Below, piece after piece: positions 3 through 55,666 of a stretch of DNA of 64,000 nt. Every line of letters starts with the position of its first letter. Position 1 is the first letter of the stretch. This DNA comes from Candidatus Krumholzibacteriota bacterium (GTDB lineage Bacteria; Krumholzibacteriota; Krumholzibacteriia; JACNKJ01). The stretch spans positions 958 to 64,957 of the forward strand of contig JAFGBK010000107.1 in assembly GCA_016933175.1 (NCBI GenBank). Reading direction: 5' to 3'. Made by a program: the position numbers and the translations under genes. The notes beneath the pieces are model-generated. The model saw nothing but the letters and a program-made list of their open reading frames with translations. It searched no databases and was not told the origin of the DNA.

Positions 3-1865
3 GGGTACAAGCGACTGCAGATCATCGCCCCGGGCGAGACGCCGGCGCCCGGCGCCAGCTCGGCCACGGGCAAGACCGGCGCCCCGATCATGCAGCAGGC
101 CGAGGTCCCCTTCATGCTGCAGGTGCGGGCCACCGACCAGTACTGGAATCTCCTCGACGACTTCGACGCCGGCGCGATCCGCCTGGCCAGCTCCGACGGC
201 AGCCTGGGCGACGGCAATCCCGTCAACCAGGGGGCGCCACTCATCGGCGGCATCGGCGACTACGCGGTGGTACTACACGACCAGGGCAGCGTCACCATCA
301 CGGCCGAGGATGAGGACGACAGCGCCATCCTCGCCCATGCCGTCGACATCCCCGTGGGCCAGGCCAGCTACCAGATCCTGGTGCCGGCGACGGCCCAGGC
401 CGGACCGCCGGCCGTCTTCCCGATCACGGTGCGCCTGGTGCGACCCGACAGCTCCCTGATCACGATGGCCAACCACGAGGTCTTCCTGCAGGCCCTGCGC
501 CCCAACCACGAGGGGGCGCACGACACCCTCGGCGTGCGCACGGGCGTGCTGGCCGCCGGCGAGCTGCACATTCCCCATCAGACCTACGCAACGGTCGAGG
601 ACATCGTCATCCGCGTCAGCGACGACCTGGGCCGCCAGAGCTACAGCCCCGTCATCCACATGGTCCCCGAGGACGTCACCTATCTCGTCGAGACGCCGAC
701 GACGGCGGTGGTCGGGCCGCCGGCCACGTTCACGGTCTCCCTGCGGCTCGTGGACACGGCCACCGGCCAGCTCGTCACCAGCGACGACCGCTCCTTCGGG
801 CTCGTCGCGCTGAACCACAACACGGGCGAGCCCGGCACCGGCTCCCTGTCGCTGACCAGCGGCAGCACCACCGGCGGCCTGTGCACCCTCGAGCTGTCCT
901 ACTCGGCGGCGGAGGCCATCTACCTGCGGATCACGGACGACCGCGGCGTTTCGGTCTTCAGCGACCCCGTCCAGGTGGCGCCGGGGCCGCCGAACAACCT
1001 GCAGGTGACGAGCAGCCACGACGAGCTGGAGGTCGGTCACACCGCCAACGTGACGGCGACCGTCCGCGACCTCTTCGGCAACCTGGTCGTCAACAGGGTG
1101 GTGACCTTCGCCCTGCTGGCCGGCGACGGCGTGCTGGGCGCCGACTCCGTGCTGACCGGCAGCCTCGGCACGGCCACCACCACCGTTTCCGTCCCCGCCG
1201 GCGGGCGTGCGGACATTCGCCTGCGCGTCGGCGTGGCCGGCCTGCCGGACCGGACGATCGACATCGGCGTCATCGGGCCGCCCCTGACGGTGATCAGCCT
1301 CGACGGCACGGCCGTCGAGGCCCACGGCGCCGTCGTCGTGACGCCGGAGACCGTGTTCCAGCTGCAGAGCTCCAGCGAGATCGGGCTGCACCAGGTCTAC
1401 TACGGCGTGGATCTCGGCGCCGAGGACCTGCCCCAGGCCGTCTACTCGGCCCCCCTGACCTTCGCCGACCTGGGCATCGCCGCGACGGGCCGCCACACCC
1501 TCAGCTTCTTCGCCGAGGACATCCACGGCAACCGCGAGAACGTGCAGACCCTGGAGATCCTGCTCGGCGCCGAGCTGGCCGCCGACAAGTCCATCAGCAA
1601 CCGCCCCAACCCGTTCCGCGCCGGGCGCGAGGAGACGCTGATCCTCTTTCGCGCGCGGGCGAGCGGCGTCGCCGAGGTCGAGCTCTACGACCTCTTCGGG
1701 CACCTCGTCTGGAACCGCTCGCTGGACGTGAGCGCCGGCGCGGTGCACCAGGTGCCCTGGGACGGCCGCAACGGGCGCGGAGAGGTGGTGGGCAACGGCG
1801 GCTACGTCTGCGTGGTCCGCACGGGCGGCGAGATCCTCAAGCGCAAGATCGCGGTGCTCAAGTGA
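3..1865 (+). CDS. Large exported Ig-like repeat protein with C-terminal FlgD-Ig (T9SS type A-like) domain; 5' truncated by window edge
   Basis: The frame of ORF 90..1865 is open back to position 3 (GYKRLQIIAPGETPAPG...). It has repeated Ig-like modules (Q/V-A/V-GPPAxFxxTVxL) and a Big_1-like segment. The C-terminus NRPNPF...LYDLFG...WDGRN...GNGGY...KRKIAVLK is an FlgD-Ig/CTD signature. Confidence 0.8.
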   Translation, partial: GYKRLQIIAPGETPAPGASSATGKTGAPIMQQAEVPFMLQVRATDQYWNLLDDFDAGAIRLASSDGSLGDGNPVNQGAPLIGGIGDYAVVLHDQGSVTITAEDEDDSAILAHAVDIPVGQASYQILVPATAQAGPPAVFPITVRLVRPDSSLITMANHEVFLQALRPNHEGAHDTLGVRTGVLAAGELHIPHQTYATVEDIVIRVSDDLGRQSYSPVIHMVPEDVTYLVETPTTAVVGPPATFTVSLRLVDTATGQLVTSDDRSFGLVALNHNTGEPGTGSLSLTSGSTTGGLCTLELSYSAAEAIYLRITDDRGVSVFSDPVQVAPGPPNNLQVTSSHDELEVGHTANVTATVRDLFGNLVVNRVVTFALLAGDGVLGADSVLTGSLGTATTTVSVPAGGRADIRLRVGVAGLPDRTIDIGVIGPPLTVISLDGTAVEAHGAVVVTPETVFQLQSSSEIGLHQVYYGVDLGAEDLPQAVYSAPLTFADLGIAATGRHTLSFFAEDIHGNRENVQTLEILLGAELAADKSISNRPNPFRAGREETLILFRARASGVAEVELYDLFGHLVWNRSLDVSAGAVHQVPWDGRNGRGEVVGNGGYVCVVRTGGEILKRKIAVLK

Positions 1866-1882
1866 GAAGGGGAGGAATGGGC

Positions 1883-3124
1883 ATGAAGCAGCCTGCCATC
1901 CTGGCGCTGTCGCTCCTGCTGCTGGCGGCGGCCGCCGCCGCCCAGGAGCCTGCGGCCGGTCAGCCCGGTGCCTTCCTGCGCTTCGGCGCGGGCGCCCGCG
2001 GTCTGGCCATGGGCGGCGCCGGCGCGGGGCTGGCCGACGACGCCGGCGCCCTCTACGCGAACCCGGCCGGCCTGGATCAGGTGCGCAGCCCCGAGCTGCT
2101 GCTGTTCCACGCCAACCTGCTGGAGGACACGCACTACGGCTTCCTGGGGCTCGTCTATCCCCTGGGGCGCCTGGGCACCCTCGGCGTGTCCGGCGTGATC
2201 CTGCAGTCGGACGGCTACGAGCGCGCCACGCTCACGGACGACCTGGGCGAGACCTTCGCGGACAGCCGCAACGCCCTGCAGCTCACCCTCGCCCGCCGCG
2301 CGGGCCCCGTGAGCGTCGGGGTCACCTACCGCCACGTCAACCAGAGCCTGGCGGGCTACAGCGGCGGCGGGGACGGCCTGGACCTGTCCCTTTTCAGCCG
2401 GCCTCTGCGCTCCCTCAGCGTCGGCCTCAGCCTGCAGAACCTGCTGGCGCCGCGCGTCACCCTCTACCAGGACGAGGAGCGTTACCCGCTCACCCTGCGC
2501 GCCGGCCTCGCCGTGCACCTGGCCGGCGGGCGCCTGCTGCCCGTGCTGGACCTGGTCCGCGTCGGCGACGCGCCGACGATCCTGCAGGCCGGCTGCGAGT
2601 ACTGGAGCTTCGGCCGCGTCGCCCTGCGCGCCGGCTGGGACACGGGGCTCAACCGCTACGCCGCCGGCGGCGGCTACCGCCACGGGCCCTGGCAGTTCGA
2701 CTACGCCGTCGCGGACACCCCCATCGGCCTCTCGCACCGTCTGAGCCTGACCTGGCGCTTCGGCCGCACGCCCCAGGGCGTGAGCATGCAGGCGAGCACG
2801 GCGCGCTTCTCGCCGAGCGGCGAGCTGAACAAGGTGGACCTCCAGCTCGAGAGCGGCCTGCGCGGCCGCGCCCAGGGCTGGGAGCTGGTGATCTACACGC
2901 CGGCGGGCGAGCCCTGCCACAGCGCCCGCGGCAGCAAGGAGCCGCCCGCGGTCTACTCCTGGGACGGCCGCGACGACCGCGGCCGCCTGGTGCCCACGGG
3001 CCGCTACCGCGTGATGATCATCGTCCTCGACGAGTTCGGCGATCCCTGGACCCAGGAGACCGTCGTCGAGATCCGCGACTACGATCCGGACCTGAAGACC
3101 CCGGTCCGGATGGAGATGCACTGA
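1883..3124 (+). CDS. PorV/PorQ-like outer-membrane beta-barrel fused to an FlgD-Ig-like domain
   Basis: GGAGG RBS at 1871-1875 and ATG at 1883. Signal peptide, then FLRFGAGARGLAMGGA and ALYANPAGL (PorV/FadL-like N-terminus). Barrel ends DYA...HRLSLTWRF, followed by RFSPSG and WDGRDDRGRLVPTGRY. Confidence 0.8.
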   Translation: MKQPAILALSLLLLAAAAAAQEPAAGQPGAFLRFGAGARGLAMGGAGAGLADDAGALYANPAGLDQVRSPELLLFHANLLEDTHYGFLGLVYPLGRLGTLGVSGVILQSDGYERATLTDDLGETFADSRNALQLTLARRAGPVSVGVTYRHVNQSLAGYSGGGDGLDLSLFSRPLRSLSVGLSLQNLLAPRVTLYQDEERYPLTLRAGLAVHLAGGRLLPVLDLVRVGDAPTILQAGCEYWSFGRVALRAGWDTGLNRYAAGGGYRHGPWQFDYAVADTPIGLSHRLSLTWRFGRTPQGVSMQASTARFSPSGELNKVDLQLESGLRGRAQGWELVIYTPAGEPCHSARGSKEPPAVYSWDGRDDRGRLVPTGRYRVMIIVLDEFGDPWTQETVVEIRDYDPDLKTPVRMEMH

Positions 3125-3135
3125 GGGAGCGCACG

Positions 3136-6100
3136 ATGAGGAAGGGAATCCCAAAGACCGTCCTGGCCGGCATGCTGCTCGTCGTCGCCGCGGCGGCCGC
3201 CGCCCAGGAGAACGCGGGCGAGCTGATCGACCAGGCGGATCGGCTGCTGCAGAAGGAGGGCGCCAGCCCGGCGACGGTCGACGCCTACCGCGCCGTCTTC
3301 CAGAGGTACGGCGACTCCGAGCACGCGGCCCGCGCCCGCTACATGGCCGCCGAGTGCCTCTACCAGCTCGGCGACCTCGCCCCGGCCCGCGACGGCTACC
3401 GGCACGTGCGCGGCGCGTCCGGCGCGACTCCGGTGCTCGCGGCCTGCGCGGAGCTGCGCCAGGGCCAGTGCGACTTCGCCGCGGGCGAGTTCGAGGCGGC
3501 GCGCAAGCACTTCCGCACCGTCGTCGACGACTTCGACGACACCTATCTGGCGCGGGACGCCCGCTTCGCCCTGGCCCAGACCCTCGTCGCCCTCAACGAC
3601 TGGGAGACCTTCCGCGAGGTGGCCGACGAGTTGACGGAGCGCTGGCCCGGCTATGCCGAGCGGCCGGAGATCCGCTTCGCCTACGGCGTCTACCACTGGG
3701 AGCTGGGCGGGCTGGCCGAGGCCAAGGAGCACTTCCGCCACGTGGAGTCCGAGCGCGCGCGCTTCTACTACGCCCGCTGCCTGGCGGCGGAGGGCCAGCA
3801 CCTGCAGGCCGTCCAGCAGTTCCGCCAGCTCCTGGTGCGCTATCCGCGCACGCCCCTGGCCGAGGACGTGCGCTTCGCCATCGCCGAGTCCTTCCTGCAC
3901 TCCGGCCAGAGGGGGCTGGCCAGCAAGGCCTTCCAGGAGCTGCTGCGCAAGCACCCGGACGGGACCCACGCCCGGGCCGCCCGCTTCAAGCTGGCCACCA
4001 TCCAGTACCGCGAGGAGGACTACACGCGCACCCTCGAGAGCCTGGACGCCCTGGCGAACGACCTGCCCGCGGAGGATTCCCTGCACGAGAAGGTCGCCAT
4101 GCTGCGCGGCCTGACCCACTTCAAGCTGGGCCGCGAGAGCGAGGCCGACCAGGCCTTCAGCTTGGTGCTCCAGCGCTTCCCGGAGGGCCGCGCCAGCAGC
4201 GCCGCCCTGTTCCGCATGATCCACAACTACGCCCGCCGGGAAAACTGGAACCAGAGCCGCGGCATGTCCCTGATGTTCGCGGACCGCTACGCCGGCGATC
4301 CCCTCGCGGGGCGCGTCCAGCTCCTGCACGCCCTGGCCTGCCTGGAGCTGGGCGAGATGGTGGAGGCCCGGCAGCACCTGGGCAAGCTCCTGGACCAGCA
4401 CTCCGGCACGGACCTGGGCGAGAAGGCCCTCTTCCTGCTGACCTGGTCGTACCACCGGGAGCACGACCTCAGCCGCATCGTCACCAACTACCGCCACCTG
4501 GCGCGCAAGCTCCTGCCGACGCCCAATCCCTGGCGCGCCCGCACCTACTACCTCATCGCCGAGAGCTACTTCCAGCTCGGCCTCTACCAGGACGCCGCCG
4601 ACCTCTACCGGCTCGTGCTCAACGACTACCCCTTCAGCGACGCCGCCCCCTACGCGCTGCAGGGCATGACGGCCTCCTACAGCCACCTCGGCGACGACCA
4701 GCGGGCCGCCCTGGAGCAGGAGCGCTACCTGCTGGTCATCAGCAACGAGGCCGGCGACAATCCCGCCAACGCCCTGGCAGCCGCGGGCATGTACTACAAC
4801 CGCAAGGAGTACAAGAAGGCCCTCGAGCTCTTCGAGAGCTTCCTGGCCGCCATGCCCGAGGCGCCCGAGCACGCCGAGGCCCTCTACCAGTCGGGCGAGT
4901 GCCTCTACTCGCTCCAGTACTACGACGACGCCGTGCGCCGCTGGGAGCGCGTCCTGGGCGAGCACCCGGACTACGCCAGCACGCCGGAAGTGCTCTTCAA
5001 GCTGGCGGACACCCTCTTCGGCCTCCAGCGCTACGGCGAGGCGCACGCGCGGTTCACCGAGCTGGTCGAGCGCTTCCCCGAGCACCGCTTCGCCGAGGAG
5101 GCCCTCTTCAACGCGGCCAACTGCCTCTACAACCGCAAGGACTACGACTCGGCGGTCCGGGCCTTCGAGCGCTACACTGCGGCCTACCCCGAGGGCCTGC
5201 GCCTGGCCGACGCCGAGCAGGCCATCCATGCCTGCTTCCTGCGCAGCGGCCGCGATCTGCTCGAGTACGTGGAGCAGAATCCGGACGCGGTCTTCGCCGC
5301 CGAGGTCCTCTGGCAGAAGGGCAGCGAGGCCTTCGCCGCCCAGCGCTGGCAGGAGGCGGCGGATCACTTCGAGACCATCACCCTGCGCTATCCGGACAGC
5401 GAGTCGGCGCCCGACGCCCTCTACTACCTCGCCGAGTCCCGGTTCTCCCTGGGCCTGCACGGGCCGTCCCTGGCGGCCTTCCAGAACTACGCGGCCACCT
5501 ATCCCGATCGGGAGCTGGTGCCCGCCGCCCTGCTGAAGTCCGGCCACATCCTCTACCTCCAGGAGAACTACGCCGAGGCGGCCGGCAACTTCCTGGTCCT
5601 CTCCGACCAGTACCCCGGCAGCGACCTGGCCCCCCTGGGCCTGTACAACGCCGGCCTCGGCTTCCGCAAGCTGGAGCAGTGGCAGTCCTTCCTCGGCAAC
5701 GGCGAGGAGTTCCTGCGGCGCTTCGCGGGGCACGAGCGGCGTCTGGAGGTGCTCATGCAGATGGCCGAGGTCCATCAGAACGAGACCGGCCAGCCCGAGG
5801 AGGCCCTCGCTCTCTGGGACCAGGTCCTGGCCGAGCCCGGCGCCCCGGCCGACCAGGTCCAGTACCAGCGGGGCGAGTGCCTGCTGAAGCTGGGCCGGGC
5901 CGACGAGGCGGAGACGGCCCTGCGCCTCGCCGCCGCCGCGCCCGGCGCCATGGATGGCGACTTCGGCGTCGCCGCCCTGGCCCGCCTCGCCTCGCACCTC
6001 GAGGAGGGCGGGCGCCTCGCCGACGCGCGCGAGGTCTACCGACAGATCGCCGGCGAGGCCGGCAACCAGGAGTGGGCCGCCCTCGCGGCGGAGCGGGTGC

Positions 6101-6144
6101 AGGCCCTCAACGCGGAACTGCAAGCGGCCGACGGCCATGAGTGA
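3136..6144 (+). CDS. 1002-aa periplasmic tetratricopeptide-repeat protein (BamD/CpoB-like repeats)
   Basis: Signal peptide and many TPR-like repeats ending in ...YP.S..A..ALY/F. Confidence 0.88.
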   Translation: MRKGIPKTVLAGMLLVVAAAAAAQENAGELIDQADRLLQKEGASPATVDAYRAVFQRYGDSEHAARARYMAAECLYQLGDLAPARDGYRHVRGASGATPVLAACAELRQGQCDFAAGEFEAARKHFRTVVDDFDDTYLARDARFALAQTLVALNDWETFREVADELTERWPGYAERPEIRFAYGVYHWELGGLAEAKEHFRHVESERARFYYARCLAAEGQHLQAVQQFRQLLVRYPRTPLAEDVRFAIAESFLHSGQRGLASKAFQELLRKHPDGTHARAARFKLATIQYREEDYTRTLESLDALANDLPAEDSLHEKVAMLRGLTHFKLGRESEADQAFSLVLQRFPEGRASSAALFRMIHNYARRENWNQSRGMSLMFADRYAGDPLAGRVQLLHALACLELGEMVEARQHLGKLLDQHSGTDLGEKALFLLTWSYHREHDLSRIVTNYRHLARKLLPTPNPWRARTYYLIAESYFQLGLYQDAADLYRLVLNDYPFSDAAPYALQGMTASYSHLGDDQRAALEQERYLLVISNEAGDNPANALAAAGMYYNRKEYKKALELFESFLAAMPEAPEHAEALYQSGECLYSLQYYDDAVRRWERVLGEHPDYASTPEVLFKLADTLFGLQRYGEAHARFTELVERFPEHRFAEEALFNAANCLYNRKDYDSAVRAFERYTAAYPEGLRLADAEQAIHACFLRSGRDLLEYVEQNPDAVFAAEVLWQKGSEAFAAQRWQEAADHFETITLRYPDSESAPDALYYLAESRFSLGLHGPSLAAFQNYAATYPDRELVPAALLKSGHILYLQENYAEAAGNFLVLSDQYPGSDLAPLGLYNAGLGFRKLEQWQSFLGNGEEFLRRFAGHERRLEVLMQMAEVHQNETGQPEEALALWDQVLAEPGAPADQVQYQRGECLLKLGRADEAETALRLAAAAPGAMDGDFGVAALARLASHLEEGGRLADAREVYRQIAGEAGNQEWAALAAERVQALNAELQAADGHE

Positions 6145-6170
6145 CGGCAACGGTTTGGAAAGGAGTGCGA

Positions 6171-6821
6171 ATGTTCAGCGGTAACAGCTTCACCGCGGTG
6201 GTCCTCAGCAGCCCGACGATGATGGTGCTGCTCGTCTGCAGCGTCATCGTGGTGACCTTCGCTTTGGAACGCTGGTGGTTCTTCGCGCGCACCGGCATCT
6301 CGGCGAACCGATTCCAGGAGACCATGCGCAAGTACCTGTCGCGCAACCAGCTCAGCGAGTTCGCCACCTGGTGCCAGAGCGGCAAGAGCTCCTTGACGCG
6401 CATTCTCGGCGTCGCCGCCGAGAACGCTCGCCTGGACAAGGAGGCGGTGGATCAGCTCCTCGACATCGAGATGGAGAAGGAGCAGGTCCACATGGAGAAG
6501 AACCTCGCCGTGCTCGGCACCCTGGCGAACATCGCCCCCCTGCTGGGGCTGTTCGGCACGGTGGTCGGCATCATCCGGGCCTTCAAGGACATCGCCGTCA
6601 CCGGCAGCGGCGGCAGCTCGGTCATCGCCATGGGCGTGGCCGAGGCCCTGCTGACCACGGCGGCGGGCATCATCGTGGCCGTCATCGCCACCGTCTTCTT
6701 CAACGTCTTCACGCGCAAGATCCGCGTCCGCAGCATCGAGGTGGAGGACGCGCGCAACTGGTTCTGGAAGTACCTCGGCCGCACCGGCGCACCCGAGGGC
6801 CCCGGCGCCGCCGGCAAGTAG
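6171..6821 (+). CDS. exbB: MotA/TolQ/ExbB proton-channel family protein
   Basis: AGGAG RBS at 6161-6165 and ATG at 6171. Motifs APLLGLFGTVVGII and GVAEALLTTAAGIIVA. Confidence 0.92.
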   Translation: MFSGNSFTAVVLSSPTMMVLLVCSVIVVTFALERWWFFARTGISANRFQETMRKYLSRNQLSEFATWCQSGKSSLTRILGVAAENARLDKEAVDQLLDIEMEKEQVHMEKNLAVLGTLANIAPLLGLFGTVVGIIRAFKDIAVTGSGGSSVIAMGVAEALLTTAAGIIVAVIATVFFNVFTRKIRVRSIEVEDARNWFWKYLGRTGAPEGPGAAGK

Positions 6822-6830
6822 GAGGCGGCA

Positions 6831-7259
6831 ATGCGACGCAAGGGCAAGCCGACCGTCCGGACCATCGCCGAGGCCAACGTCACGCCCCTGGCTGACGTGG
6901 TGACGACCCTCATCGTCGTCTTCCTGATGACCATGCCGGCGCTGGTCTGGTCCGGCATCCAGGTCAACGCCACGCGGGCCGCCAAGTCCCGCGAGGTGGT
7001 GCGCAAGGATCGCAGCACGGCCGATAAGATGATGGTCCTGATCCACAAGGGCGTCATCGAGGTCGACGGCGAGAGCCTGCGCATGGCCGAGCTGGCGGAG
7101 CTGACGCGCGCCCGCATGGCCGACACCGACGACCGCACGGTCATCCTCGTCCCCGACGACGACGTGCCGCTGGGCTGGGTGGTGACGGTCATGGACGTTC
7201 TCAAGCAGAACGGGGCCGAGAGCCTGGCCCTCCTCAACCGGATCGGAGGAGAGGCATGA
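6831..7259 (+). CDS. exbD: ExbD/TolR family protein (canonical TM Asp retained, D22)
   Basis: NVTPLADVVTTLIVVFLM TM motif and C-terminal VV.VMDVLKQNG. Confidence 0.9.
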   Translation: MRRKGKPTVRTIAEANVTPLADVVTTLIVVFLMTMPALVWSGIQVNATRAAKSREVVRKDRSTADKMMVLIHKGVIEVDGESLRMAELAELTRARMADTDDRTVILVPDDDVPLGWVVTVMDVLKQNGAESLALLNRIGGEA

Positions 7260-7666
7260 GGATGCGCGACTACCGCATGGAAGCCAAGACGGACGTGGTT
7301 CCGATCATCAACGTCTCGCTGGTCATCGTCCTGACGCTGATGATCATCAGCCCCTTCCTCAACAACTCCGACCTGGAGGTGCAGCTGCCCGAGGCCACCA
7401 CCACGGAGACCGAGGACCAGGACAAGGTGGAGATCGTCATGACCGCCGACGGCCGCTTCTCCGTCCAGGAGGCGGAGGTCGACTTCGCGTCCCTGCCGGC
7501 GGCGCTGGCGGACCAGTTCGTCAACGCGCCGAGCCGCATGGCCGTGCTCAAGGCCGACAAGGGCATCGCCTACGGCGACGTGGAGCGGGTCATCGCCGTG
7601 ATCCAGAAGGCGGGCGCGCCGCGCATCGCCCTCGCCACGGAGCAGAAGACGGGGGGAGGCGACTGA
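7256..7666 (+). CDS. exbD: Second ExbD/TolR family protein (TM Asp replaced by Asn, N19)
   Basis: DVVPIINVSLVIVLTLMI, ADKGIAYGDV and AGAPRIAL motifs; 4-nt overlap with the upstream exbD. Confidence 0.88.
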   Translation: MRMRDYRMEAKTDVVPIINVSLVIVLTLMIISPFLNNSDLEVQLPEATTTETEDQDKVEIVMTADGRFSVQEAEVDFASLPAALADQFVNAPSRMAVLKADKGIAYGDVERVIAVIQKAGAPRIALATEQKTGGGD

Positions 7667-9021
7667 TGGGCCTCGGTTTCCCCCGGCCGTGCGCGGACCG
7701 GATGGCCTCCCAGCCCGGCCGCACGACGGTCCTGTCGGCGCTGGCCTCCACGGCCCTGCACGTCCTGTTCCTGGCCGCCCTGGCCCTGACGGCGGGCAAG
7801 GCCCGCCAGTCCGACGGGCCGGAGCTGATGGAGATCAGCTACATCGTGGAGCGCTATGGCGCCGAGGTGGCCTCGCGGGTGACCCTGGCCCCCGAGCGCG
7901 TGGCGGCCCTGCGCGGCGGCGCGCCGAAGCTGGAGGGATCCCTCTTCGGCCGCTTGGAGCCGGACCTGTCCCTGCGGACGCCGACGGCGCCCCTGTCGGC
8001 CGCCGCCGAGGCGGCACCGGCGCGGGAGCGCCTGGCCGCGGCGGCGCCCGCGGCGCCGCCCGTGCTGGAGTCGCGCGCGCGTCCCGACACCGCTCCCCCG
8101 GCGGCCCTGGCGGGTCCGCTGGTGGCGGCCGTGCCGGGATCCCTGGCGGGCGGCGACACGGCGGCCCCCGCCGCCCTCGGGCCGCCGTCGGCGCCGCCGG
8201 TCGATCTCGCGGGCAAGGCGCTCGTCGGCCGTCCCGCTCCCGACATCGCGTCGGCGCCCTTCGCCGTGGCCGAGACCGAGCCGCCGGGCGCGCCGCTGAC
8301 CCTGGCCGCCCCCGCGGGCGGCTGGTCGGGCGGCCATCCGAAGCTGGCCGGCGGCACCCTGCCGCCGGGCGAGGAGGCCTGGCGCGGCGATCTGCCCGGC
8401 AGCGGCGGACGCGGCGCGCCGGGATCCGACGCCGGCAAGGGCCTCGCCTCGCGCGACGCCCTGTCCCGCCTCGCCGCCGAGGGCCCTGCCGCGTCCGGCG
8501 GGGACGACGGGCCCGCCACTGCCGCCGGGGACGGATCCGCCGCGGGCGCCGGGGCGACGCGTGGCCGCGGCCTGGTGTCGCGGGGCGGCGCCGACGCCGT
8601 CACACGCAGCGGCTCCCTGATCCGCGAGAGCACCCGCGGCGATGCCGCCGGGCCGCCGGCGGGCGAGCTGCAGGCCGCGGCGCCGGAGGAGCCCGGCGCG
8701 GCCGGCGAGGCGAAGCGTTCCCTGTCGGGGGACGGCGTCAGTCTCACGCTCAGCGGCCCGATCCTGGACCGGGAGATCCTGTTCTCATCGCCGCCGGATT
8801 ATCCCGCCGAGGCCAGGCGCCGCGCCTGGCAGGGCGCCTGCGCCCTCTACTTCACCGTGCGAGAGGACGGCTCCGTGGGAAAGGTGCTCATCGAGACGGC
8901 AAGCCCCCACCGCGTCCTGGACGAGGCGGCCCGGCGCAGCCTCGAGCGCTGGCGCTTCGCCGCCCGTCCCGGGGCGGCCGAGCAATGGGGCATCCTGACC
9001 GTGGTCTTCCGCCTGCGCTGA
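7666..9021 (+). CDS. tonB: TonB-family energy transducer
   Basis: N-terminal TM with SxxxH (STALH), long Pro/Ala/Gly linker, and TonB_C domain PDYPAEARRRAWQG...FTVREDGSV...WRF. Confidence 0.88.
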   Translation: MGLGFPRPCADRMASQPGRTTVLSALASTALHVLFLAALALTAGKARQSDGPELMEISYIVERYGAEVASRVTLAPERVAALRGGAPKLEGSLFGRLEPDLSLRTPTAPLSAAAEAAPARERLAAAAPAAPPVLESRARPDTAPPAALAGPLVAAVPGSLAGGDTAAPAALGPPSAPPVDLAGKALVGRPAPDIASAPFAVAETEPPGAPLTLAAPAGGWSGGHPKLAGGTLPPGEEAWRGDLPGSGGRGAPGSDAGKGLASRDALSRLAAEGPAASGGDDGPATAAGDGSAAGAGATRGRGLVSRGGADAVTRSGSLIRESTRGDAAGPPAGELQAAAPEEPGAAGEAKRSLSGDGVSLTLSGPILDREILFSSPPDYPAEARRRAWQGACALYFTVREDGSVGKVLIETASPHRVLDEAARRSLERWRFAARPGAAEQWGILTVVFRLR

Positions 9022-9043
9022 GGACCCGCACCGGAGAGAGAGC

Positions 9044-9964
9044 ATGAAGGCAGCAGCCACGATCAACGCACTGCTTCTGGGCCTCGCCCTCCTGGCGCCC
9101 GCCGCGGGCGCCCAGGACGAGCTGGCGGGCCAGGCCGTCCACCAGATGGAGGTGGTGGGCGAGAGCGAGTTCCGCCTCCAGGTGGAGAAGACCGAGCTGG
9201 ACTTCCACCCCACCGCCATGGATCTCGATGACGGCGCCACGGAGGAGGAGGCCGCCCTGTTCGAGTACGCGCCGCCGGCGAGCTTCCACCCCTACCTCTA
9301 CGACAGCGAGCGGGTGGAATGCCCCCTGGTGCCGAGCTTCGCCGACCGGCCCGTGAGCCGGGCGCCGGTGGTCTCCTTCCGCACGGACTTCAGCGGCAGC
9401 GCCGACGTGGTGCAGTGGAACCTGGACATCACCGACTACCGCGGGGAGGCGTTCCGCAGCATGGAGGGCAAGAAGCGGCCCCCGGATGTCATGCGCTGGG
9501 ACGGCCGCGGCAACCACGGAGAGATCCTCAAGCCCGGCTTCCCCTACTCCTTCCTCTTCACCATCGAGGACTCGGGCACCAACCGCTACCAGTACGCCGG
9601 CAACACCTTCTCGCTGCCCTTCGTCTGCTACCAGGAGGGCAAGAACCTGCGCGTGGAGGCGGCGGCGCACGCCCTGTTCGACAAGGGCCTCTCGCGGCCC
9701 CTGGCGGAAGCGCCCGGCCGGGTGGACCGCATCCTGCGCGAGATCCTCGACTCCCCCCGCCGCGCCGTGCAGGTGGACGCCTGGGCCGAAACCGAGGCCC
9801 TGGCGGCGGCCCGCGCCGCCTGGCTGGCCAAGGCCCTGGAGACGCGCCTGCTCCTGGCCGAGGACCAGGTGGCCAGCGCAGGGTACGCCTACAAGGGCGA
9901 CCCGCCGGGCCGCGACGGCCTGCTGCGCGTGATCCTGCTCAAGGGGGGCAAGAAGGAGGACTAG
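9044..9964 (+). CDS. Exported protein with FlgD-Ig-like module and degenerate OmpA-like C-terminal domain
   Basis: Signal peptide; WNLDITDYRGEAFR...RWDGRGNHGEILKPG (FlgD-like); C-terminal LFDKG...ARAAWLAKAL...GY...RVILL resembles the OmpA/Pal fold but lacks a clear GHTD motif. Confidence 0.55.
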   Translation: MKAAATINALLLGLALLAPAAGAQDELAGQAVHQMEVVGESEFRLQVEKTELDFHPTAMDLDDGATEEEAALFEYAPPASFHPYLYDSERVECPLVPSFADRPVSRAPVVSFRTDFSGSADVVQWNLDITDYRGEAFRSMEGKKRPPDVMRWDGRGNHGEILKPGFPYSFLFTIEDSGTNRYQYAGNTFSLPFVCYQEGKNLRVEAAAHALFDKGLSRPLAEAPGRVDRILREILDSPRRAVQVDAWAETEALAAARAAWLAKALETRLLLAEDQVASAGYAYKGDPPGRDGLLRVILLKGGKKED

Positions 9965-20803: not shown

Positions 20804-20901
20804 GACGCTGCCGAGGGACGTGACGGGAAGACCGCACATCGCTCCCGAGCCGACTTCGAAGCGGAGGCGCAGGGAGCGATGTGCGGTCTTCGTGCAGCGT
20901 C
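20804..20901. repeat. Perfect 20-bp inverted repeat with an outer 8-bp inverted repeat, between convergent genes
   Basis: GAAGACCGCACATCGCTCCC (20827-20846) pairs with 20872-20891; GACGCTGC (20804-20811) pairs with 20894-20901. Confidence 0.8.
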
Positions 20902-23900
20902 TATTTCAGCAGCGTCAGCTTGCGCGTCTCGACCTGGCTGTCCACCTGCAGCCGCGCGAAGTAGATGCCGCTCGCGACGGCGCGGGCGCTGTCGTCGCGT
21001 CCCTGCCAGCTCTGGACGTAGGTGCCCGCCGGCAGGGCTTCGTCCACGAGCTTGGCCACGAGCCGGCCGCGAACGTCGTGGATGCTCAGGCGCACGGGCC
21101 GCTGCCCCTCCCCCGTCAGCGTGAAGCGGATGTGGGTCTTCGGATTGAAGGGGTTCGGCCAGTTGCGGTCCAGGCGGACGACGCCCGGCGGTAGGTCCTC
21201 CTCGGCCACGTCGACCACCCAGTCGATGGCGTCGTAGTTGCCGCTGCGCGTGGCGTCGTGCTGGAAGGTGTACCAGGGCGTCGCCGCCGGATCGTAGAGC
21301 ACCGGGAACTCCCAGATGCGGACATACAGGTCCCAGCCGGCGACGATCATGTCCAGCTGCCCGTTCCCGTCGAAGTCGACGAAGGTGGGCGTCGTGCGCA
21401 GGAAGTCGTCGGCGCCCAGGGGGAAGCCGTCCACCGGCGTGCCGTCGTGGTGCCAGGCCTCGATGAGCGCATCCTCATTGGCCACGAAGACCTCGAAGTC
21501 CCCGTCGCCGTCCACGTCGGCCACGGAGGGCGACGCCACGGTGTAGTGGCTCGTCGTGCGCGGCCAGCCCGGCAGCAGGGTGCCATCGGCGTCGAACCAG
21601 GCCACGTCCATGTGCTCGTTGTTGTGGACGCCGCAGACGAAGATCTCCGGGTAGCCGTCGCCGGTCAGGTCGGCCAGGGCGGGGCTGGGCGCCAGGCCCC
21701 AGTTGTTGTTGAACCAGTAGACGGGCCAGCCCGGATGGCGCGAGCCGTCGTGGTCGAGCACGTAGAGGGAGTCGTTCTCCGCCGGGAAGACGATCTCCGG
21801 CAGGCCGTCCCCGTCCACGTCGCCGATGGCGGGGCTGCAGTACATCTCCATGCCGGTGTCAAAGGGGAAGCCGTCCACCAGCGTGCCGTCCGCGTGCCAG
21901 GCGTAGAGATAGCCGGTCATGGAGCAGATGAAGATCTCGTTGGCGCGATCGCCGTCCACGTCGCCGAAGGCGCAGGTGGAGCGCAGCCAGCCGCCGAGCC
22001 CCGTGGCGAAGACGCCCTGGGTCAGCGGGTTGTTGTCGCCATCGATCAGCTCCGTGCCGTCGTGGTGCCAGGCCAGGAGGTGGCCGCCCACGTCGGAGGC
22101 GAAGATCTCCATGTCGCTGTCGCCGTCCACGTCCGCCACGGAGGGCGTACCGTAGATGCCGTAGCTGTGGGCGATGCTGCGCGGCCAGCCCGGCGCCACC
22201 GTGGCCTCGATGCTGATGCCGGTGCCGTTGATCTCCCAGACATAGATCTCGGCCGTGTCCCAGCTGCCGCCGATCAGCTCGACGCCGGCGCGGCCGGGAA
22301 TGACGTTGGCTGCCGTCAGGGAGCAGTTGATGTAGTTATGGCCGTCGGTGATGAGCGGGCCGTGGGTATAGGGATCGCCGTCGCCGTCGGCCAGCTCGGT
22401 GCCATCGGGATGGAACGCGTAGATGACATCGGCGCCCACCAGCAGCTCGTTCCTGCCGTCGCCGGTGAAATCGGCGACGACGGGCGTGCCGGCCGTCCAC
22501 TCGTAGAGACGCTGCGGCCAGCCGAGCAGCTGCGGCACGTTCGTCGTCACCTTGAGCGAGTCCGAGAGCACGCCCGTCAGGCCGGCTGCGGAGAGGGTCT
22601 GGACGCGGTACCAGTACTGCGTGAAGGTGTCCAGCCCCTCGTCCTCGTAGGTGCAGCTCCGCATCCAGTGCGTGGAGATCTCGGCGTAGGGCCCCCCGGC
22701 TTCGGCCGCGCGCAGGACGATGTAGGCGTAGGCGTCTTCGCTGCCGGGCGGCGTCCAGTCGATGATGACGCGGGAGGCGTCCGAGCCGTACTCCGAGCTC
22801 AGCTCCGTGGCCGGTGCCGCGGGGCGCGCCAGGAGCATGGTCAGGCTGTCGCTGTGGCCGAGGCCGTCGGCCAGGACGAGGAGCAGCTCGGGCGGCTCCG
22901 GCCCGCCGCGGCTCACCTCGAAGAGCGCCGGACCGAGGCCCAGGCTGAGGGAATCGAGGTCGCCCAGGACGGCCACGCCCTGTGTCACGGTCAGGCTGCT
23001 GCCCGCCGTCGGCTCGATGGTGGCCGTCACGTCCGGCGCCGTGGCGCGGCCGTAGTTGGCCAGGCTGATGCCGACCGCCGCCGCCTCCCCCTCCTCGAGA
23101 TCGCCGTCGCCGTCGCCCTGGGCCGTGTCGTCCAGCTCGGTGCGGTACAGGGCAAGCAGCGGCGCCGCGGCCTCGAGGTAGAAGTCGTCCTCTGTGGTGA
23201 CCTCCGTGCAGGTGATGGACAGCGTGAAGGGCAGAATGGCGTCGTCCGCCACGTCACCCAGCTGCACGAGGTAGGGATCGCCGCCGTCGCTGGTGTTGCC
23301 CGCGAGGATGGTGCCGTAGGTGTCCGTGGAGTCGAGCACCGTCACGGCCGGATCGGCGCAGCGCAGGACGGCCCCGGTGTTGCTGGCCCAGAAGGTGCCG
23401 TTGTTCTGCAGGGTGATGGTCAGGCGCACGATCTCGCCGCGCTCGGGCACGCCGTTGCCGTTGCCCGCCACCGTACCGTCGGCGACGTCGTCCACGGCCA
23501 CCAGCGCGGCGGAGAGCAGGGGCTCGCCGCTGGGCGCCAGTACGTCCACCGTGCCGTTGACCGGCGTGGCGTCGCGCGCCGTGACCCGGATCTGGTAGCG
23601 TCCCCCGGTCTCGGGATTGGGCGCGAACTCCACCTGCCCGGCCGTGTCGGTGACGCCGCGCAGGTAGTCCTCGTCGCCGCGACGCAGGGTCACCTGGGCC
23701 CCGGGGCGCGGCAGCAGGCTGACGCGGTCCGTGATGGTGACCACCAGCGGGCCGCTGCCCGCCACGTGGGTCGGCGGCGTTTCGATGGCCAGCGAGTCCA
23801 GAAGGGTCCAGTGCAGCCAGTTGCTGGGGTCGGCCAGAAGCGTATGGGAGGTGTGGGCCCAGCGATAGCCGCCGCCTTCCAGCGTCTCCGGCTCGAAGTT

Positions 23901-25622
23901 GTTCAGCATGCCCGTGTAGATCTCGCCCAGCCGCAGGTCCGGGTTGCTGGTGAACAGGTCGAAGAAGACGTCCTGGTACAGCGAGCTCACGGTGGGGAAG
24001 GTCTCGCGCGTCGAGCCGATGACCGCGAAGGCGCCGCCGCTGTCATGGAAAAGGAAGGACTCCGCGAGGCAGTTGAAATCGAAGGCCGCCGCCGTGCAGT
24101 TGACCATGTAGAGCAGGAAGGTCCGGTCGCCGTTGGGCAGGGCATTGATCATGTTCGACGTGATGCTGCCGTTGGCGACGCTCATGGTCTGCCGCATGCC
24201 GTGGCCGTGGTGGACGACGATGTTCTGCCCCGCACCCATGGAGTCCAGCGCGGCCTGGACGCTCAGCGGCTCGCAGCCGGGGTAGTCGGCCGTGTTCTCG
24301 TAGAGGCGCGTGACGTCCTGGTCGGGCCCCATGTACTTCACGTAGAGCGACTCGCAGTACTCCGCCCCGTCGATGGTGATGTTGGGATTGGTGGGATAGT
24401 CCAGGGGGAAGAGCACCTCGCCCAGGAGTAGGACCCGGTTCTGGTAGGGAGCGGCGGTGCCCTGCATGTACGTTTCGCTCTTGGTCAAGATGGCCGCGAC
24501 CTCGTCCCGCGTGCCGGCGGGCAGGCGGCCGACGATGACCTCGGGCAGGAGGTCCGTCTCGTCGCCCCAGTCGCCGATGGCGGTGTCCGCATCCTCGGCC
24601 CAGAAGGCGTTGTGGTTGGCGTTCCAGTCGCCGTCCAGGCAGCCGAAGTAGAGGTCCGAGGGCGACTCGCGCGGATCGAAGAAGATGTCGGTGTAGACCA
24701 TGCGCGAGGGGATCTGCTCCACATCGGCCACGATGAGCAGGAAGCGCAGCGACCACTTCTCGTAGGCGTCGACGACGAAGTTCCGAACCAGCTCGGCGCG
24801 GTCGCTGCCGAAGGGGTAGCGCTGCTCGATCCACTCCAGCGTGCGCACGACCGTCGGCAGGCCGTAGGAGGTCTTCAGATCGGCGTAGCCCGCGCAGAGG
24901 TCCGCGAAGGAGTCCACGGTGACGATGACCATTTCCACGGCGCTGCCCTCGATGCTGGGCACCTCGGTGGGGAAGTCGCCGCCGCCGGCCGCCCGCGGCA
25001 CCGCGGGCGGCAGCGATCCGGGATTGAGCAGGCCCGCGCCGAGGGAGGCGAGGATGCGCTCGTGCAGGGGAAAATCCGGGCGCAGAGGAGTCCGCGCGGT
25101 CGCCGGCCCGTCGAAGTCGGTGACCAGGCGCAGGCGCGCGCCGCGCAGGACCAGCAGGCGGCCCGCCTCGGCGCGCAGGGGCGTCAGGGCCAGGGCCTGG
25201 AAGCTCCGCCCGTGCAGGTGGCGCGGCGGCGAGAGCTGCAGGGGATAGTCAGCGAACCAGAGGGGCCCTTCGCCGGCGCCACGGACAGCGCTGCCTTCGG
25301 AACCGCGCAGGGGCAGACGGCGCGGCGCGCGCGACAGCTCGGCCACCGGCGCCTCATCGACATCCACCAGGCTGGCGGCGACGATGCGCTCGCCCGGCGC
25401 CAGGGCCCACCACCAGGTGAGCGTGGGCGCCAGGGCCCGGTCGGCTCCGGGATCGGCCAGGACGTCGGCGAGCCACCGCCCCACGGCGGTCTGCGGATCG
25501 CGGGCCTCATCCAGAGGCAGCGCGACCTCGTGGACCGCGGCGCCGGCCGGGAGGGCGGTCGCGAGAAACAGGCTGGCGAGCAGGAGCGGGAACAGGCGCT
25601 TCGGGCGTCGGGTGCGTGACAT
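20901..25622 (-). CDS. Gingipain-like C25 cysteine peptidase with Ig/FN3, FG-GAP repeats and FlgD-Ig CTD (paralog 1, 1573 aa)
   Basis: Signal peptide; C25 motifs SDLYFGCLDG, VGRLP, HHGHG and MVNC; repeats SPA(I/L)GDVDGDG; C-terminal NWPNPFNP...WQGRD...ASGIYF...RKLTLLK. Confidence 0.88.
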   Translation of the reverse strand: MSRTRRPKRLFPLLLASLFLATALPAGAAVHEVALPLDEARDPQTAVGRWLADVLADPGADRALAPTLTWWWALAPGERIVAASLVDVDEAPVAELSRAPRRLPLRGSEGSAVRGAGEGPLWFADYPLQLSPPRHLHGRSFQALALTPLRAEAGRLLVLRGARLRLVTDFDGPATARTPLRPDFPLHERILASLGAGLLNPGSLPPAVPRAAGGGDFPTEVPSIEGSAVEMVIVTVDSFADLCAGYADLKTSYGLPTVVRTLEWIEQRYPFGSDRAELVRNFVVDAYEKWSLRFLLIVADVEQIPSRMVYTDIFFDPRESPSDLYFGCLDGDWNANHNAFWAEDADTAIGDWGDETDLLPEVIVGRLPAGTRDEVAAILTKSETYMQGTAAPYQNRVLLLGEVLFPLDYPTNPNITIDGAEYCESLYVKYMGPDQDVTRLYENTADYPGCEPLSVQAALDSMGAGQNIVVHHGHGMRQTMSVANGSITSNMINALPNGDRTFLLYMVNCTAAAFDFNCLAESFLFHDSGGAFAVIGSTRETFPTVSSLYQDVFFDLFTSNPDLRLGEIYTGMLNNFEPETLEGGGYRWAHTSHTLLADPSNWLHWTLLDSLAIETPPTHVAGSGPLVVTITDRVSLLPRPGAQVTLRRGDEDYLRGVTDTAGQVEFAPNPETGGRYQIRVTARDATPVNGTVDVLAPSGEPLLSAALVAVDDVADGTVAGNGNGVPERGEIVRLTITLQNNGTFWASNTGAVLRCADPAVTVLDSTDTYGTILAGNTSDGGDPYLVQLGDVADDAILPFTLSITCTEVTTEDDFYLEAAAPLLALYRTELDDTAQGDGDGDLEEGEAAAVGISLANYGRATAPDVTATIEPTAGSSLTVTQGVAVLGDLDSLSLGLGPALFEVSRGGPEPPELLLVLADGLGHSDSLTMLLARPAAPATELSSEYGSDASRVIIDWTPPGSEDAYAYIVLRAAEAGGPYAEISTHWMRSCTYEDEGLDTFTQYWYRVQTLSAAGLTGVLSDSLKVTTNVPQLLGWPQRLYEWTAGTPVVADFTGDGRNELLVGADVIYAFHPDGTELADGDGDPYTHGPLITDGHNYINCSLTAANVIPGRAGVELIGGSWDTAEIYVWEINGTGISIEATVAPGWPRSIAHSYGIYGTPSVADVDGDSDMEIFASDVGGHLLAWHHDGTELIDGDNNPLTQGVFATGLGGWLRSTCAFGDVDGDRANEIFICSMTGYLYAWHADGTLVDGFPFDTGMEMYCSPAIGDVDGDGLPEIVFPAENDSLYVLDHDGSRHPGWPVYWFNNNWGLAPSPALADLTGDGYPEIFVCGVHNNEHMDVAWFDADGTLLPGWPRTTSHYTVASPSVADVDGDGDFEVFVANEDALIEAWHHDGTPVDGFPLGADDFLRTTPTFVDFDGNGQLDMIVAGWDLYVRIWEFPVLYDPAATPWYTFQHDATRSGNYDAIDWVVDVAEEDLPPGVVRLDRNWPNPFNPKTHIRFTLTGEGQRPVRLSIHDVRGRLVAKLVDEALPAGTYVQSWQGRDDSARAVASGIYFARLQVDSQVETRKLTLLK

Positions 25623-25683
25623 CGATCCGTCCTTCTCAGGATGAGGGGGAAAGAACCACTCCATAACTCTACAGGGGAGTATA

Positions 25684-25748: not shown

Positions 25749-26528
25749 TTACAGGCCGCGACGTGCCTTTTCCAGGAACTCGCGCTCCTCGCGCGTCAGG
25801 GAGCCCAGGCCTTCCCGGTTCACCTTGTCGAGGATCTCGTCCACGCGGCGGCGCAGGGCGCGCTGGCGCTCGATGTCGCGGCGCCGGCGCCGTCCCTCGA
25901 GGTCGACGAAGGAGCGCCGGTACCAGCCCGTCTTCATCAGCACGTAGCCCGAGGCGAGGCCGCCGATGTGGGCCAGGTGGGCGATGCTCCCGCCCCCCTG
26001 GATGGCGCCGAAGATGTCCAGGGCCGCCACCAGCCAGACGAAGTAGCGCACCTTCATGGGGATGATCAGGAAGGCCAGGATGATGCGGTCCGGGAAGAGG
26101 ACCCCGTAGGCCGCCAGGACGCCCAGGACCGCGCCGCTGGCGCCCAGGATGAGGGCCTTCCACATGAACAGGCTGCAGAGACCCGCCACCAGGCCCGAGA
26201 CCAGGTAGAGGCGCAGGAAGGCGCGCCGGCCGATGGTCATCTCGACCTCGCGGCCGAACATCCACAGCACGAACATGTTGAACAGGATGTGGAGAAAGCC
26301 CCCGTGCAGGAACATGTAGGTGAAGATCTGCCAGACCATGCCCCGCATGAATCCCGTCGCGGGCTGCAGCGCGAACAGCATCAGGAACGACTGGTAGAAG
26401 CGCGTCCGCATGAGGACGAGCTGGACGACGAAGATCAGCCCGTTGATGGCCAGCAGGCGCAGGGTCCAGGGATAGGGGCTGTCGCCGAAGGGCAGGGGAT
26501 CGCGCCGCCCGCCGCCGTAGTAGCTCAC
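25749..26528 (-). CDS. Rhomboid family intramembrane serine protease with a short cytoplasmic C-terminal domain
   Basis: WQIFTYMFLHGG..HILFNM, GASG (catalytic Ser), AHLAHIGG (His); tail VDEILDKVNREGLGSLT; GTG at 26528. Confidence 0.92.
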   Translation of the reverse strand: MSYYGGGRRDPLPFGDSPYPWTLRLLAINGLIFVVQLVLMRTRFYQSFLMLFALQPATGFMRGMVWQIFTYMFLHGGFLHILFNMFVLWMFGREVEMTIGRRAFLRLYLVSGLVAGLCSLFMWKALILGASGAVLGVLAAYGVLFPDRIILAFLIIPMKVRYFVWLVAALDIFGAIQGGGSIAHLAHIGGLASGYVLMKTGWYRRSFVDLEGRRRRRDIERQRALRRRVDEILDKVNREGLGSLTREEREFLEKARRGL

Positions 26529-27046
26529 GTGTCGAACCTCGCGCCGAAGGTGATGAGCAGCCCCGAACCGGTGAAGCTGCCGCCCGAGTACTCCAGGGCC
26601 CGGTTGACGAACAGGGCCTGGAGGAGCCACCGCTCGCCCAGGCGCCATTCCAGGCCGGCCTCGAGGGTGGCCGTCCAGCGGGAGGCGTGCTCGCCGCCCG
26701 CGGACCACCAGAGCCCGTGCTGCCCGAAGCCGCCGGCCACGAACCAGCGACGCGGTCCCCGCTCCAGCAGGTAGCGGCGCAGACTCAGCTCGGCGCCCTC
26801 GATATGGCCGACGCCGTCGGCCACGATGCGGTTGTAGCGCACCGCCAGGCCGAAGCGGCGCGCCGCCAGACCCCGGGAGAGCCCGGCCAGGTCCGCGGGC
26901 TCGAACAGGCCCTCGGCGCTGGCGCCCCAGGCCGCGTGGCTCGCGTCGTAGAGGTAGAAGGCGTCGCCGCCCAGGCTGTAGGCCATCGCGCCGGCGGCGA
27001 CGGGCGAGGCGAGGACCGCCGCGACCAGCAGGGCGGCCGCCCTCAC
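26525..27046 (-). CDS. Small exported protein, probable outer-membrane beta-barrel
   Basis: Signal peptide, alternating hydrophobic beta-strand pattern, C-terminal ITFGARF-DT; coupled by 4-nt overlaps on both sides. Confidence 0.55.
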   Translation of the reverse strand: MRAAALLVAAVLASPVAAGAMAYSLGGDAFYLYDASHAAWGASAEGLFEPADLAGLSRGLAARRFGLAVRYNRIVADGVGHIEGAELSLRRYLLERGPRRWFVAGGFGQHGLWWSAGGEHASRWTATLEAGLEWRLGERWLLQALFVNRALEYSGGSFTGSGLLITFGARFDT

Positions 27047-29683: not shown

Positions 29684-29824
29684 GTTGCCGTCCCCGTGAA
29701 GCAAGGTCTTGATTCCAAAGGCTTTCTAGGCGATCCCCGGGCGGCCTGTCAAGGTGAAAGGATTTCAGCCTCCGTCACATGCATATCACGCAATGCGAAT
29801 GTGTTGCGCGGCTCGCTAATCAAA

Positions 29825-55530: not shown

Positions 55531-55666
55531 CTCCCACCTCCTGAACGGGTCCGCGCTAGCGCCCGGGGCATCGGCTGCGGCGACGCCGGGGCCGCGCCCC
55601 GCCAGCCGCATGGTCCCCCAGAGATCGGAAGAGCGTCAAGGATTATTCAGGTGGATTGGGCGTCGC

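Follow-up and report, generated by a model that had tools for sequence, protein, structure and literature searches.

What does a proton motor of the Ton type drive when it is encoded together with a carrier-type outer-membrane barrel and a giant surface protein, instead of a plug receptor? The question is raised by eight co-oriented genes, here called G1 to G8, on the + strand at positions 3-9964 of a 64,000-nucleotide stretch of DNA (the window; contig JAFGBK010000107.1, positions 958 to 64,957) from an uncultured sediment bacterium of the Krumholzibacteriota. In order, the genes encode a giant surface protein of immunoglobulin-like (Ig) repeats with a sorting tail, a PorV-like barrel, a large tetratricopeptide repeat (TPR) protein, ExbB, two ExbD proteins, TonB, and a protein with an Ig and an OmpA-like domain. 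An earlier sequence-only reading had proposed this operon with the same domain calls, and every one of them was confirmed with Pfam and NCBIfam models, with support from predicted folds (AlphaFold2 (AF2) models compared with the PDB by Foldseek). The block joins known parts in a strictly conserved arrangement for which literature searches returned no published description, and I propose that its motor acts on its barrel.

All eight genes are real. The gaps between them, from G1 to G8, are 11, 11, -4, 9, -4, -1 and 22 nt, the third (between G3 and G4) becoming 26 nt if ExbB begins at the ATG at 6171, as it does in a 99%-identical database protein. The G+C content of the window is 72%, and the third-position GC of the eight chosen frames lies between 0.93 and 0.97. 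Downstream, the block is bounded by a convergent trpS. One public DNA run contains a contig of 9,047 bases that spans positions 649-9695 with 3 differences and may originate from the source sample, and a 170-nt contig from the sediment metatranscriptome of the source study maps to G3 at 5591-5760 with 1 mismatch.

The operon is a strictly conserved unit. About 25 distinct complete copies of the block, each in surroundings of its own, were collected from two phylum-level groups, WOR-3 genomes and those of the Krumholzibacteriota type, at protein identities of 25-70% and a GC of 37-72%; between the extreme copies all eight proteins are 25-35% identical. The same gene order was obtained from three starting points (the barrel, ExbB and G8) with zero exceptions, which bears out the conservation that the sequence-only reading had proposed to check in the gene neighbourhoods. 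Barrel homologues at 66%, 41% and 33% identity already show the identical eight-gene order between unrelated flanks, while the GC content falls from 70% to 47%. In a scan of barrel loci with one genome per species (80 loci), the Ig-bearing barrels of Krumholzibacteria, metagenome-assembled genomes (MAGs) and candidate division WOR-3 have the motor downstream in every case where the contig continues; none of these motor genes is found within 10 kb of the 69 more distant barrels.

Searches from the other two ends gave the same picture. The best 120 ExbB homologues are 48-99% identical, and all five surroundings that were read consist of the block, with differing flanks, so that, counting the operon of the window, this orthologue group is confined to the block in six of six contexts inspected. 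For G8, each of 38 metagenome loci keeps the order upstream to the contig end (13 of them are complete, at a GC of 0.37-0.72), and a G8 profile finds 209 cluster representatives at E<1e-30, with about 49 full-length G8-type proteins among the top 150. No TonB-dependent receptor or TolB is encoded within 10 kb in the eight contexts annotated with Pfam.

Individual copies show peculiarities of their own. In a WOR-3 copy (L053:14102-20406), a BamB-like beta-propeller of 419 aa and a 1683-aa Por_Secre_tail protein (49.7 bits) are encoded between the TPR gene and exbB. In a Krumholzibacteriia copy (L132:11112-12883), the gene calls break the second ExbD and TonB into pieces of 100, 251 and 96 aa, which could reflect frameshifts, assembly errors or decay. 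Two block-bearing MAGs (L012 and L017) are labelled Fibrobacteraceae; their barrels nest among Krumholzibacteria sequences, so the label is possibly unreliable and was not relied on. The region 5' of G1 is outside the window, and in four relatives it contains sigma-54-type -24/-12 elements (TGGCAT-N5-TTGC) at about 146 (L003), 130 (L005), 252 (L012) and 160 nt (L015) upstream of G1. In one lineage (L004-L006:1-2941), the genes directly upstream of the block code for a histidine kinase and for an NtrC-type sigma-54 activator.

The history of the barrel also speaks for a functional link with a motor. When the barrel region is placed in a tree, the barrels with a motor fall into a Krumholzibacteriota-type and a WOR-3 group, both in one half of the tree, and motor linkage requires two state changes versus about 19 in shuffles. 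Their nearest neighbours are barrels from Elusimicrobia that are fused to C-terminal TPR repeats. At seven Elusimicrobia loci (L027:9923-17913; also L023, L026, L028, L030, L032 and L033), the barrel-TPR gene is followed by genes for a protein with FliG_M, FliG_C and TPR domains, a protein of about 800 aa without any family match, a MotA_ExbB protein (96 bits) and a MotB_plug/OmpA protein. The occurrence of a FliG-domain protein next to a stator and a PorV-like barrel is an unusual combination. The barrel subfamily is thus genetically linked to two kinds of proton motor, ExbB/ExbD/TonB and MotA/MotB, which argues that the link is functional and no accident of neighbourhood.

What, then, are the parts? 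G1 (3..1865, +) comprises the C-terminal 620 aa of the giant surface protein, whose 5' end lies beyond the window. It is 66% identical to the final 620 aa of a 2240-aa protein (L003) that has a signal peptide, and full-length relatives measure 2240-2255 aa. Pfam places a Big_1 domain at aa 347-409 and recognises Ig-type repeats only, with no binding or enzyme domain, in G1 and its relatives. The C-terminal domain (1605..1862, +) is a probable sorting domain of the FlgD_ig kind, similar to type A in type IX secretion systems (T9SS). Its scores of 23 bits with FlgD_ig (cutoff 27) and 20.2 bits with TIGR04183 (cutoff 23) are both slightly below cutoff; relatives, however, exceed the FlgD_ig cutoff (37 bits in L003, 34 in L007 and 28 in L005), and the NRPNPF motif and the lysine-rich end, KRKIAVLK, are typical for type A sorting domains. 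In an alignment this tail shares a common core with the Ig domains of G2 and G8.

G2 (1877..3124, +) is, by its predicted fold, an outer-membrane barrel of the PorV/FadL family with a signal peptide, an NPAG hatch, about 14 strands and a C-terminal FlgD-type Ig domain. It scores 87 bits with the PorV/PorQ family model NF033709 (cutoff 90) and 24.2 bits with UPF0164 (PF03687), above the cutoff of 21.4; the NCBIfam equivalog models for PorQ and PorV2 stay far under their cutoffs. Sequence searches of the PDB were uninformative for both G2 (no match) and G8 (noise only), and for this reason a fold search was used. The AF2 model of G2, built from 68 homologues, has a pLDDT (predicted local distance difference test) of 90.4. 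An N-terminal hatch is followed in it by about 14 barrel strands (residues 73-294) and by an Ig domain (residues 302-399). Among solved structures, the PorV chains from the SprA translocon of Flavobacterium come closest (8gl6_F, E 3.4e-12, TM 0.64; 6h3i_F, E 6.5e-11, TM 0.65), with FadL and TodX next. The NPAG hatch motif is invariant among the relatives of G2. The Ig domain (2780..3073, +), delimited by the strands of the model and by a FlgD_ig match in Pfam, follows the pattern FSPSG ... PPxxxxWDG ... GxY, and its columns F311, S312, P313, G315, W335, P356, P357, W362, G364 and D366 are invariant. In FadL/PorV barrels both termini are periplasmic, and because of this the Ig domain of the modelled G2 should lie in the periplasm. 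By analogy with type IX carriers, I propose that G2 binds the type IX-style tail of G1, its neighbouring cargo, a tail of the sort held by PorV-family barrels.

The following gene, G3 (3136..6144, +), encodes an exported all-TPR protein of 1002 aa. It matches TPR families, eight stretches of the YbgF/CpoB type and a BamD-like model in Pfam and NCBIfam, and it reaches 87 bits with PorW/SprE, below the cutoff of 250. G3 is a probable periplasmic scaffold.

The four motor genes contain the parts of a Ton system, namely ExbB, ExbD with a transmembrane Asp, and TonB with a TonB_C domain and an S-x3-H helix. PF01618, PF02472 (twice) and PF03544 match above cutoff; the thresholds of the NCBIfam equivalogs of ExbB, ExbD and TonB are missed. 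G4 (6171..6821, +; alternative start GTG 6141) is an ExbB/TolQ-type proton channel, the subunit of a stator pentamer, with 105 bits for PF01618 (MotA_ExbB), and its 216-aa form matches database entry P0045. Against solved structures it scores about equally with ExbB (61 bits) and TolQ (58 bits), with MotA/PomA far off, while its best NCBIfam model is TolQ (103 bits, cutoff 221) versus 75 bits for ExbB.

The two ExbD/TolR proteins differ at an essential site. G5 (6831..7259, +; PF02472, 69 bits) has the transmembrane Asp D22 (codon 6894-6896), which is kept in all 40 relatives read. G6 (7256..7666, +; PF02472, 86 bits) has Asn N19 in its place (codon 7310-7312); all high-GC relatives have Asn at this site, whereas of the WOR-3 groups one has Ala or Cys and another Asp. 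In most versions the pair would therefore be a heterodimer with a single protonatable Asp. The NCBIfam TolR model gives the two subunits 48 and 69 bits, under its cutoff of 127. G7 (7666..9021, +) is a TonB-type transducer. Its N-terminal membrane helix carries S28-x3-H32, and a long linker rich in Pro, Ala and Gly leads to a TonB_C domain (8791-9015, +; aa 376-450) with a YP motif. It scores 56 bits with PF03544 and 52 bits with TIGR01352, the PDB matches to its C-terminus are TonB C-terminal domains only, and the S-x3-H of the membrane helix is kept in relatives.

G8 (9044..9964, +), the last gene of the block, encodes an exported protein with a plain signal peptide and no lipobox Cys, thus a non-lipoprotein. 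Its N-terminal part is disordered (about 100 residues are of low confidence in the AF2 model) and is followed by a FlgD-type Ig domain (aa 110-207; a weak FlgD_ig match in Pfam) and an OmpA/MotB-like domain (aa 212-299). Foldseek aligns the model with the OmpA-like domains of FopA, MotB, TssL, PomB and PorE-C, with FlgD at rank 47; the E values of the OmpA-like fold range from 2.5e-6 to 1e-4 (FopA, MotB, TssL and OmpA domains). The OmpA model of Pfam stays below threshold in G8 of the window and is faint in the WOR-3 copy. Residues E249, A254 and R257 are nearly invariant, and E249...R257 lies at the position of the peptidoglycan-binding acidic/Arg pair, with a spacing shorter than that of the Asp/Arg pair; on this model, G8 probably binds the cell wall.

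A second feature of G8 is the conserved, strand-prone motif HQMEVVGE (9140..9163, +) near the mature N-terminus. It lies about 10 residues past the signal-peptide cleavage site, within an otherwise disordered stretch of 80 residues, and AF2 predicts residues 36-38 as a strand. Among 26 relatives the motif occurs as MEVV(D/G), as EE(V/I)IKGE in WOR-3 and, in a further group of the Krumholzibacteriota type, as (M/L)VVEA(E/Q)N. I take it to resemble a TonB box, or else the N-terminus with which TolB binds TolA, and this makes it a candidate grip, TonB-box- or TolA-box-like, for the TonB domain.

How could these parts work together? I propose that the block specifies a self-contained machine, driven by the proton gradient and spanning the cell envelope. 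Its stator would be an inner-membrane unit of the Ton/Tol type with 5:2-type architecture, formed by the ExbB protein G4 and the mixed ExbD pair of G5 and G6, and it would drive the TonB-type arm G7 as transducer. The TPR protein G3 may serve as the scaffold and the OmpA-like G8 as an anchor, probably on the cell wall. At the output stands, in this proposal, the PorV-family carrier barrel G2 with its periplasmic Ig domain as a 'handle', holding the type IX-style C-terminal domain of the giant Ig-repeat protein G1. The TonB domain could grip the N-terminal strand of G8, the Ig domain of G2 or the hatch of G2, and the force of the motor would reach the carrier-cargo pair through G2 directly or via G8 or G3; G1 might thereby be extracted, moved over the surface or put under tension.

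According to published work on type IX secretion, PorV and its substrate are in the current model forced off SprA as a complex by energy input, and the same chain propels adhesins that are anchored on the carrier (PMC10994853). Together with a parts list that runs from the inner to the outer membrane, this model leads me to favour a private Ton/Tol-type energy chain that pulls a PorV-type carrier of its own, whose load is a giant protein bearing the C-terminal domain, a reading that I consider to have about an even chance of being correct. Some observations weigh against it. The length of G1 among relatives ranges from 551 to 2255 aa, so that conservation is limited to the tail and the neighbouring region. 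The N-terminal hatch motif of G2 was considered as a specific TonB box and had to be rejected, as the motif is common to barrels without a motor. Finally, the one metatranscriptome of the source study gave no coverage of the operon beyond the single 170-nt contig in G3, which is too little for an operon transcript.

A broader claim would make PorV-family carrier barrels a general outer-membrane output for 5:2 proton motors. I regard this as rather unlikely. In Krumholzibacteriota and WOR-3 the Ton-type block could then be the energy chain, or one of several private ones, that extracts carrier and cargo from a type IX pore or drives surface movement, hence an alternative and perhaps more ancient power source for gliding or for secretion in the style of type IX, and the Elusimicrobia set of barrel-TPR, MotA/MotB and FliG-domain proteins would be a second member of the class with a different motor.

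The remaining explanations keep the motor and change its task. One is a divergent tether of the Tol-Pal type between outer membrane and cell wall, with the barrel as an anchor that replaces lipidated Pal and TolB, which I judge unlikely. TolQ (103 versus 75 bits for ExbB) and TolR are the best NCBIfam models for the stator proteins, G3 contains the eight YbgF/CpoB-type stretches, G8 has the OmpA-like fold with a conserved acidic/Arg pair, and the strand motif at its N-terminus presumably resembles the TolA-binding N-terminus of TolB. It would also fit that classical tol-pal is absent from Bacteroidota, where PorE combines fused CpoB, TolB and Pal folds (PMC12204202). However, all Tol scores remain far under the equivalog cutoffs, the block has neither a TolB propeller nor a lipobox in G8, the C-terminus of the transducer is that of TonB and not of TolA in the PDB, and the first gene always encodes a giant surface protein tagged with the C-terminal domain, for which Tol-Pal has no need.

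Distinctly unlikely, in my estimate, is a housekeeping Ton system that energises TonB-dependent receptors elsewhere in the genome and has the cargo-barrel pair as a mere conserved neighbour. The order ExbB-ExbD-ExbD-TonB with a TPR gene is the usual layout in the Fibrobacteres-Chlorobi-Bacteroidetes (FCB) group, G7 has a canonical TonB_C domain, and in Bacteroidota the TonB that supports growth belongs to a locus of seven genes, which also encodes ExbB and two ExbD (bioRxiv 10.1101/2025.11.18.689179). A mere neighbour, however, would not be expected to behave as the barrel, TPR and G8 genes do, which are never apart from the motor in the complete copies with their unrelated flanks. Gaps of 11 nt and overlapping stops connect the genes of the barrel and the TPR protein with those of the motor, and no receptor is nearby, either in the window or within 10 kb in the eight annotated contexts. 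As for a new TonB-dependent importer, in which the motor pulls open a FadL/PorV hatch and G1 is a SusD-like surface capture protein, I consider it very improbable, for although TonB systems classically power import and FadL-family barrels are gated by an N-terminal hatch such as that predicted in the G2 model, the hatch motif is not specific to motor-linked barrels, the closest solved fold is the carrier PorV and not FadL, and G1 consists of Ig-type repeats without a recognisable binding or enzyme domain.

The favoured reading, a private energy chain for a private carrier, has also to be seen against the other type IX-like genes in the window. The sequence-only reading had found no TonB-dependent receptor, TolB or PorK/L/M/N gene there, and this holds, as Pfam scans of the 46 window proteins returned no Plug/TonB_dep_Rec, TolB or GldK/L/M/N, and SprA is likewise not encoded in the window. 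It had further suggested a new machine for a lineage outside Bacteroidota. A dedicated motor-barrel machine is well supported; the idea that the block stands in for a missing type IX system, however, is not supported, since the window holds proteins with C-terminal domains of the T9SS type as well as two C25 (PorU-like) peptidases. The latter are two colinear proteins of 1575-1587 aa (20901-25664, - strand; 44397-49124, - strand) with Peptidase_C25, FG-GAP repeats and a FlgD_ig/TIGR04183 tail. Both sorting tails exceed the TIGR04183 or the FlgD_ig cutoff (30.3 bits with TIGR04183, above cutoff, in a C25 protein of the window). As PorU orthologues they were rejected, because they score 84-100 bits against a cutoff of 420 and match in the peptidase core only.

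Next to the first of these genes is a second cargo-barrel set, without a motor (25749-29704, - strand), which has the C25 gene directly downstream. It encodes a 579-aa FlgD_ig protein, a 333-aa barrel, a 173-aa protein without a match and a rhomboid protease; the barrel has a remote match to a PorV-like profile (E 1e-11) and the hatch motif GARDLAMGGA. Elsewhere in the window, at 54451-55611 (- strand), a gene combines a ParA/MinD-type ATPase (AAA_31 156 bits) and a glycogen-binding module of the CBM48/AMPK-beta type (AMPK1_CBM 51 bits) in one fusion protein.

To my knowledge, few routes are known by which energy reaches the Gram-negative outer membrane: the Ton and Tol-Pal systems, the Agl-Glt machine, the GldLM chain of type IX and the flagellar stators. 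The block would add a new pairing to these, in which a Ton-type motor works with a carrier-type barrel and a giant surface protein instead of a plug receptor. It bears on the open question in type IX secretion of how mechanical energy is transferred to a carrier protein, and on the powering or evolution of type IX secretion outside Bacteroidota. As the parts are few and lie in one operon, the idea is testable.

Features that the block has in common with the Ton system are ExbB, an ExbD that retains the transmembrane Asp, the YP motif in TonB_C and the S-x3-H in the TonB helix. However, no 22-strand plug receptor is encoded in the block or in the window, the partner being a 14-strand barrel of the carrier type, and there are two dissimilar ExbD proteins, one of them without the Asp. 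With Tol-Pal the block shares a stator similar to TolQ/TolR, a TPR protein that resembles CpoB and an OmpA-like partner that probably binds the cell wall; it differs in having neither TolB nor a lipidated Pal, in the TonB-type C-terminus of its transducer, and in the cargo and barrel genes that are always added.

The core complex of Agl-Glt consists of aglR, aglQ and aglS together with the TPR genes gltC/D/E and the TonB-like gltG; no function is known for it beyond the Myxococcales, and as part of the complete gliding machine it is combined with proteins of the outer membrane and with an adhesin on the cell surface (Luciano et al. 2011, PMC3169522). As in the block, one TolQ-like and two TolR-like proteins, a TonB-like transducer and a large exported TPR protein are encoded in one operon. 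This likeness is a non-specific feature that several other systems have as well. A survey of TolA/TonB evolution describes motor operons in which a TPR gene accompanies two TolR genes that differ from each other (PMC12204202). The differences are more telling: the block scores 21.8 bits with the GltC model NF033756 (cutoff 450) and 18.9 bits with the AgmX/PglI tail NF033768 (myxo_SS_tail; cutoff 40), its transducer is without a forkhead-associated (FHA) domain, and its outer-membrane partner is a PorV-family barrel with T9SS-type cargo and not GltA/B/H/K with CglB.

Within the FCB group, a cluster of Fibrobacter succinogenes (FSU_2396-FSU_2403: OmpA, TPR, TPR, ExbB, ExbD, ExbD, TonB) is more abundant on cellulose, and its OmpA and TPR members are found in an adhesion complex (PMC6851124, PMC4619616). 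Compared by description, it combines the same types of parts in one cluster, and proteomics links it to surface adhesion rather than to a receptor; the gene order differs, however, and the papers report no PorV-like barrel or cargo with a C-terminal domain in the cluster.

The last comparison is with type IX secretion of Bacteroidota, for which I considered the GldLM/PorLM motor, Hub, SprA, SprE/PorW and PorV, and the pairs PorU-PorV, PorZ-PorQ and SprB-SprF. In contrast to type IX, the motor of the block is of the ExbB/ExbD/TonB type and not GldL/GldM, the block lacks the GldK/N ring proteins, its barrel has an extra periplasmic Ig domain, and everything is encoded in one operon of a lineage outside Bacteroidota. 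What the block has in common with type IX is a gene for a PorV-fold barrel beside that of a cargo whose C-terminal domain is type-A-like, the involvement of a large TPR protein and of one with an OmpA-like domain, and a 5:2-type proton motor linked to a carrier.

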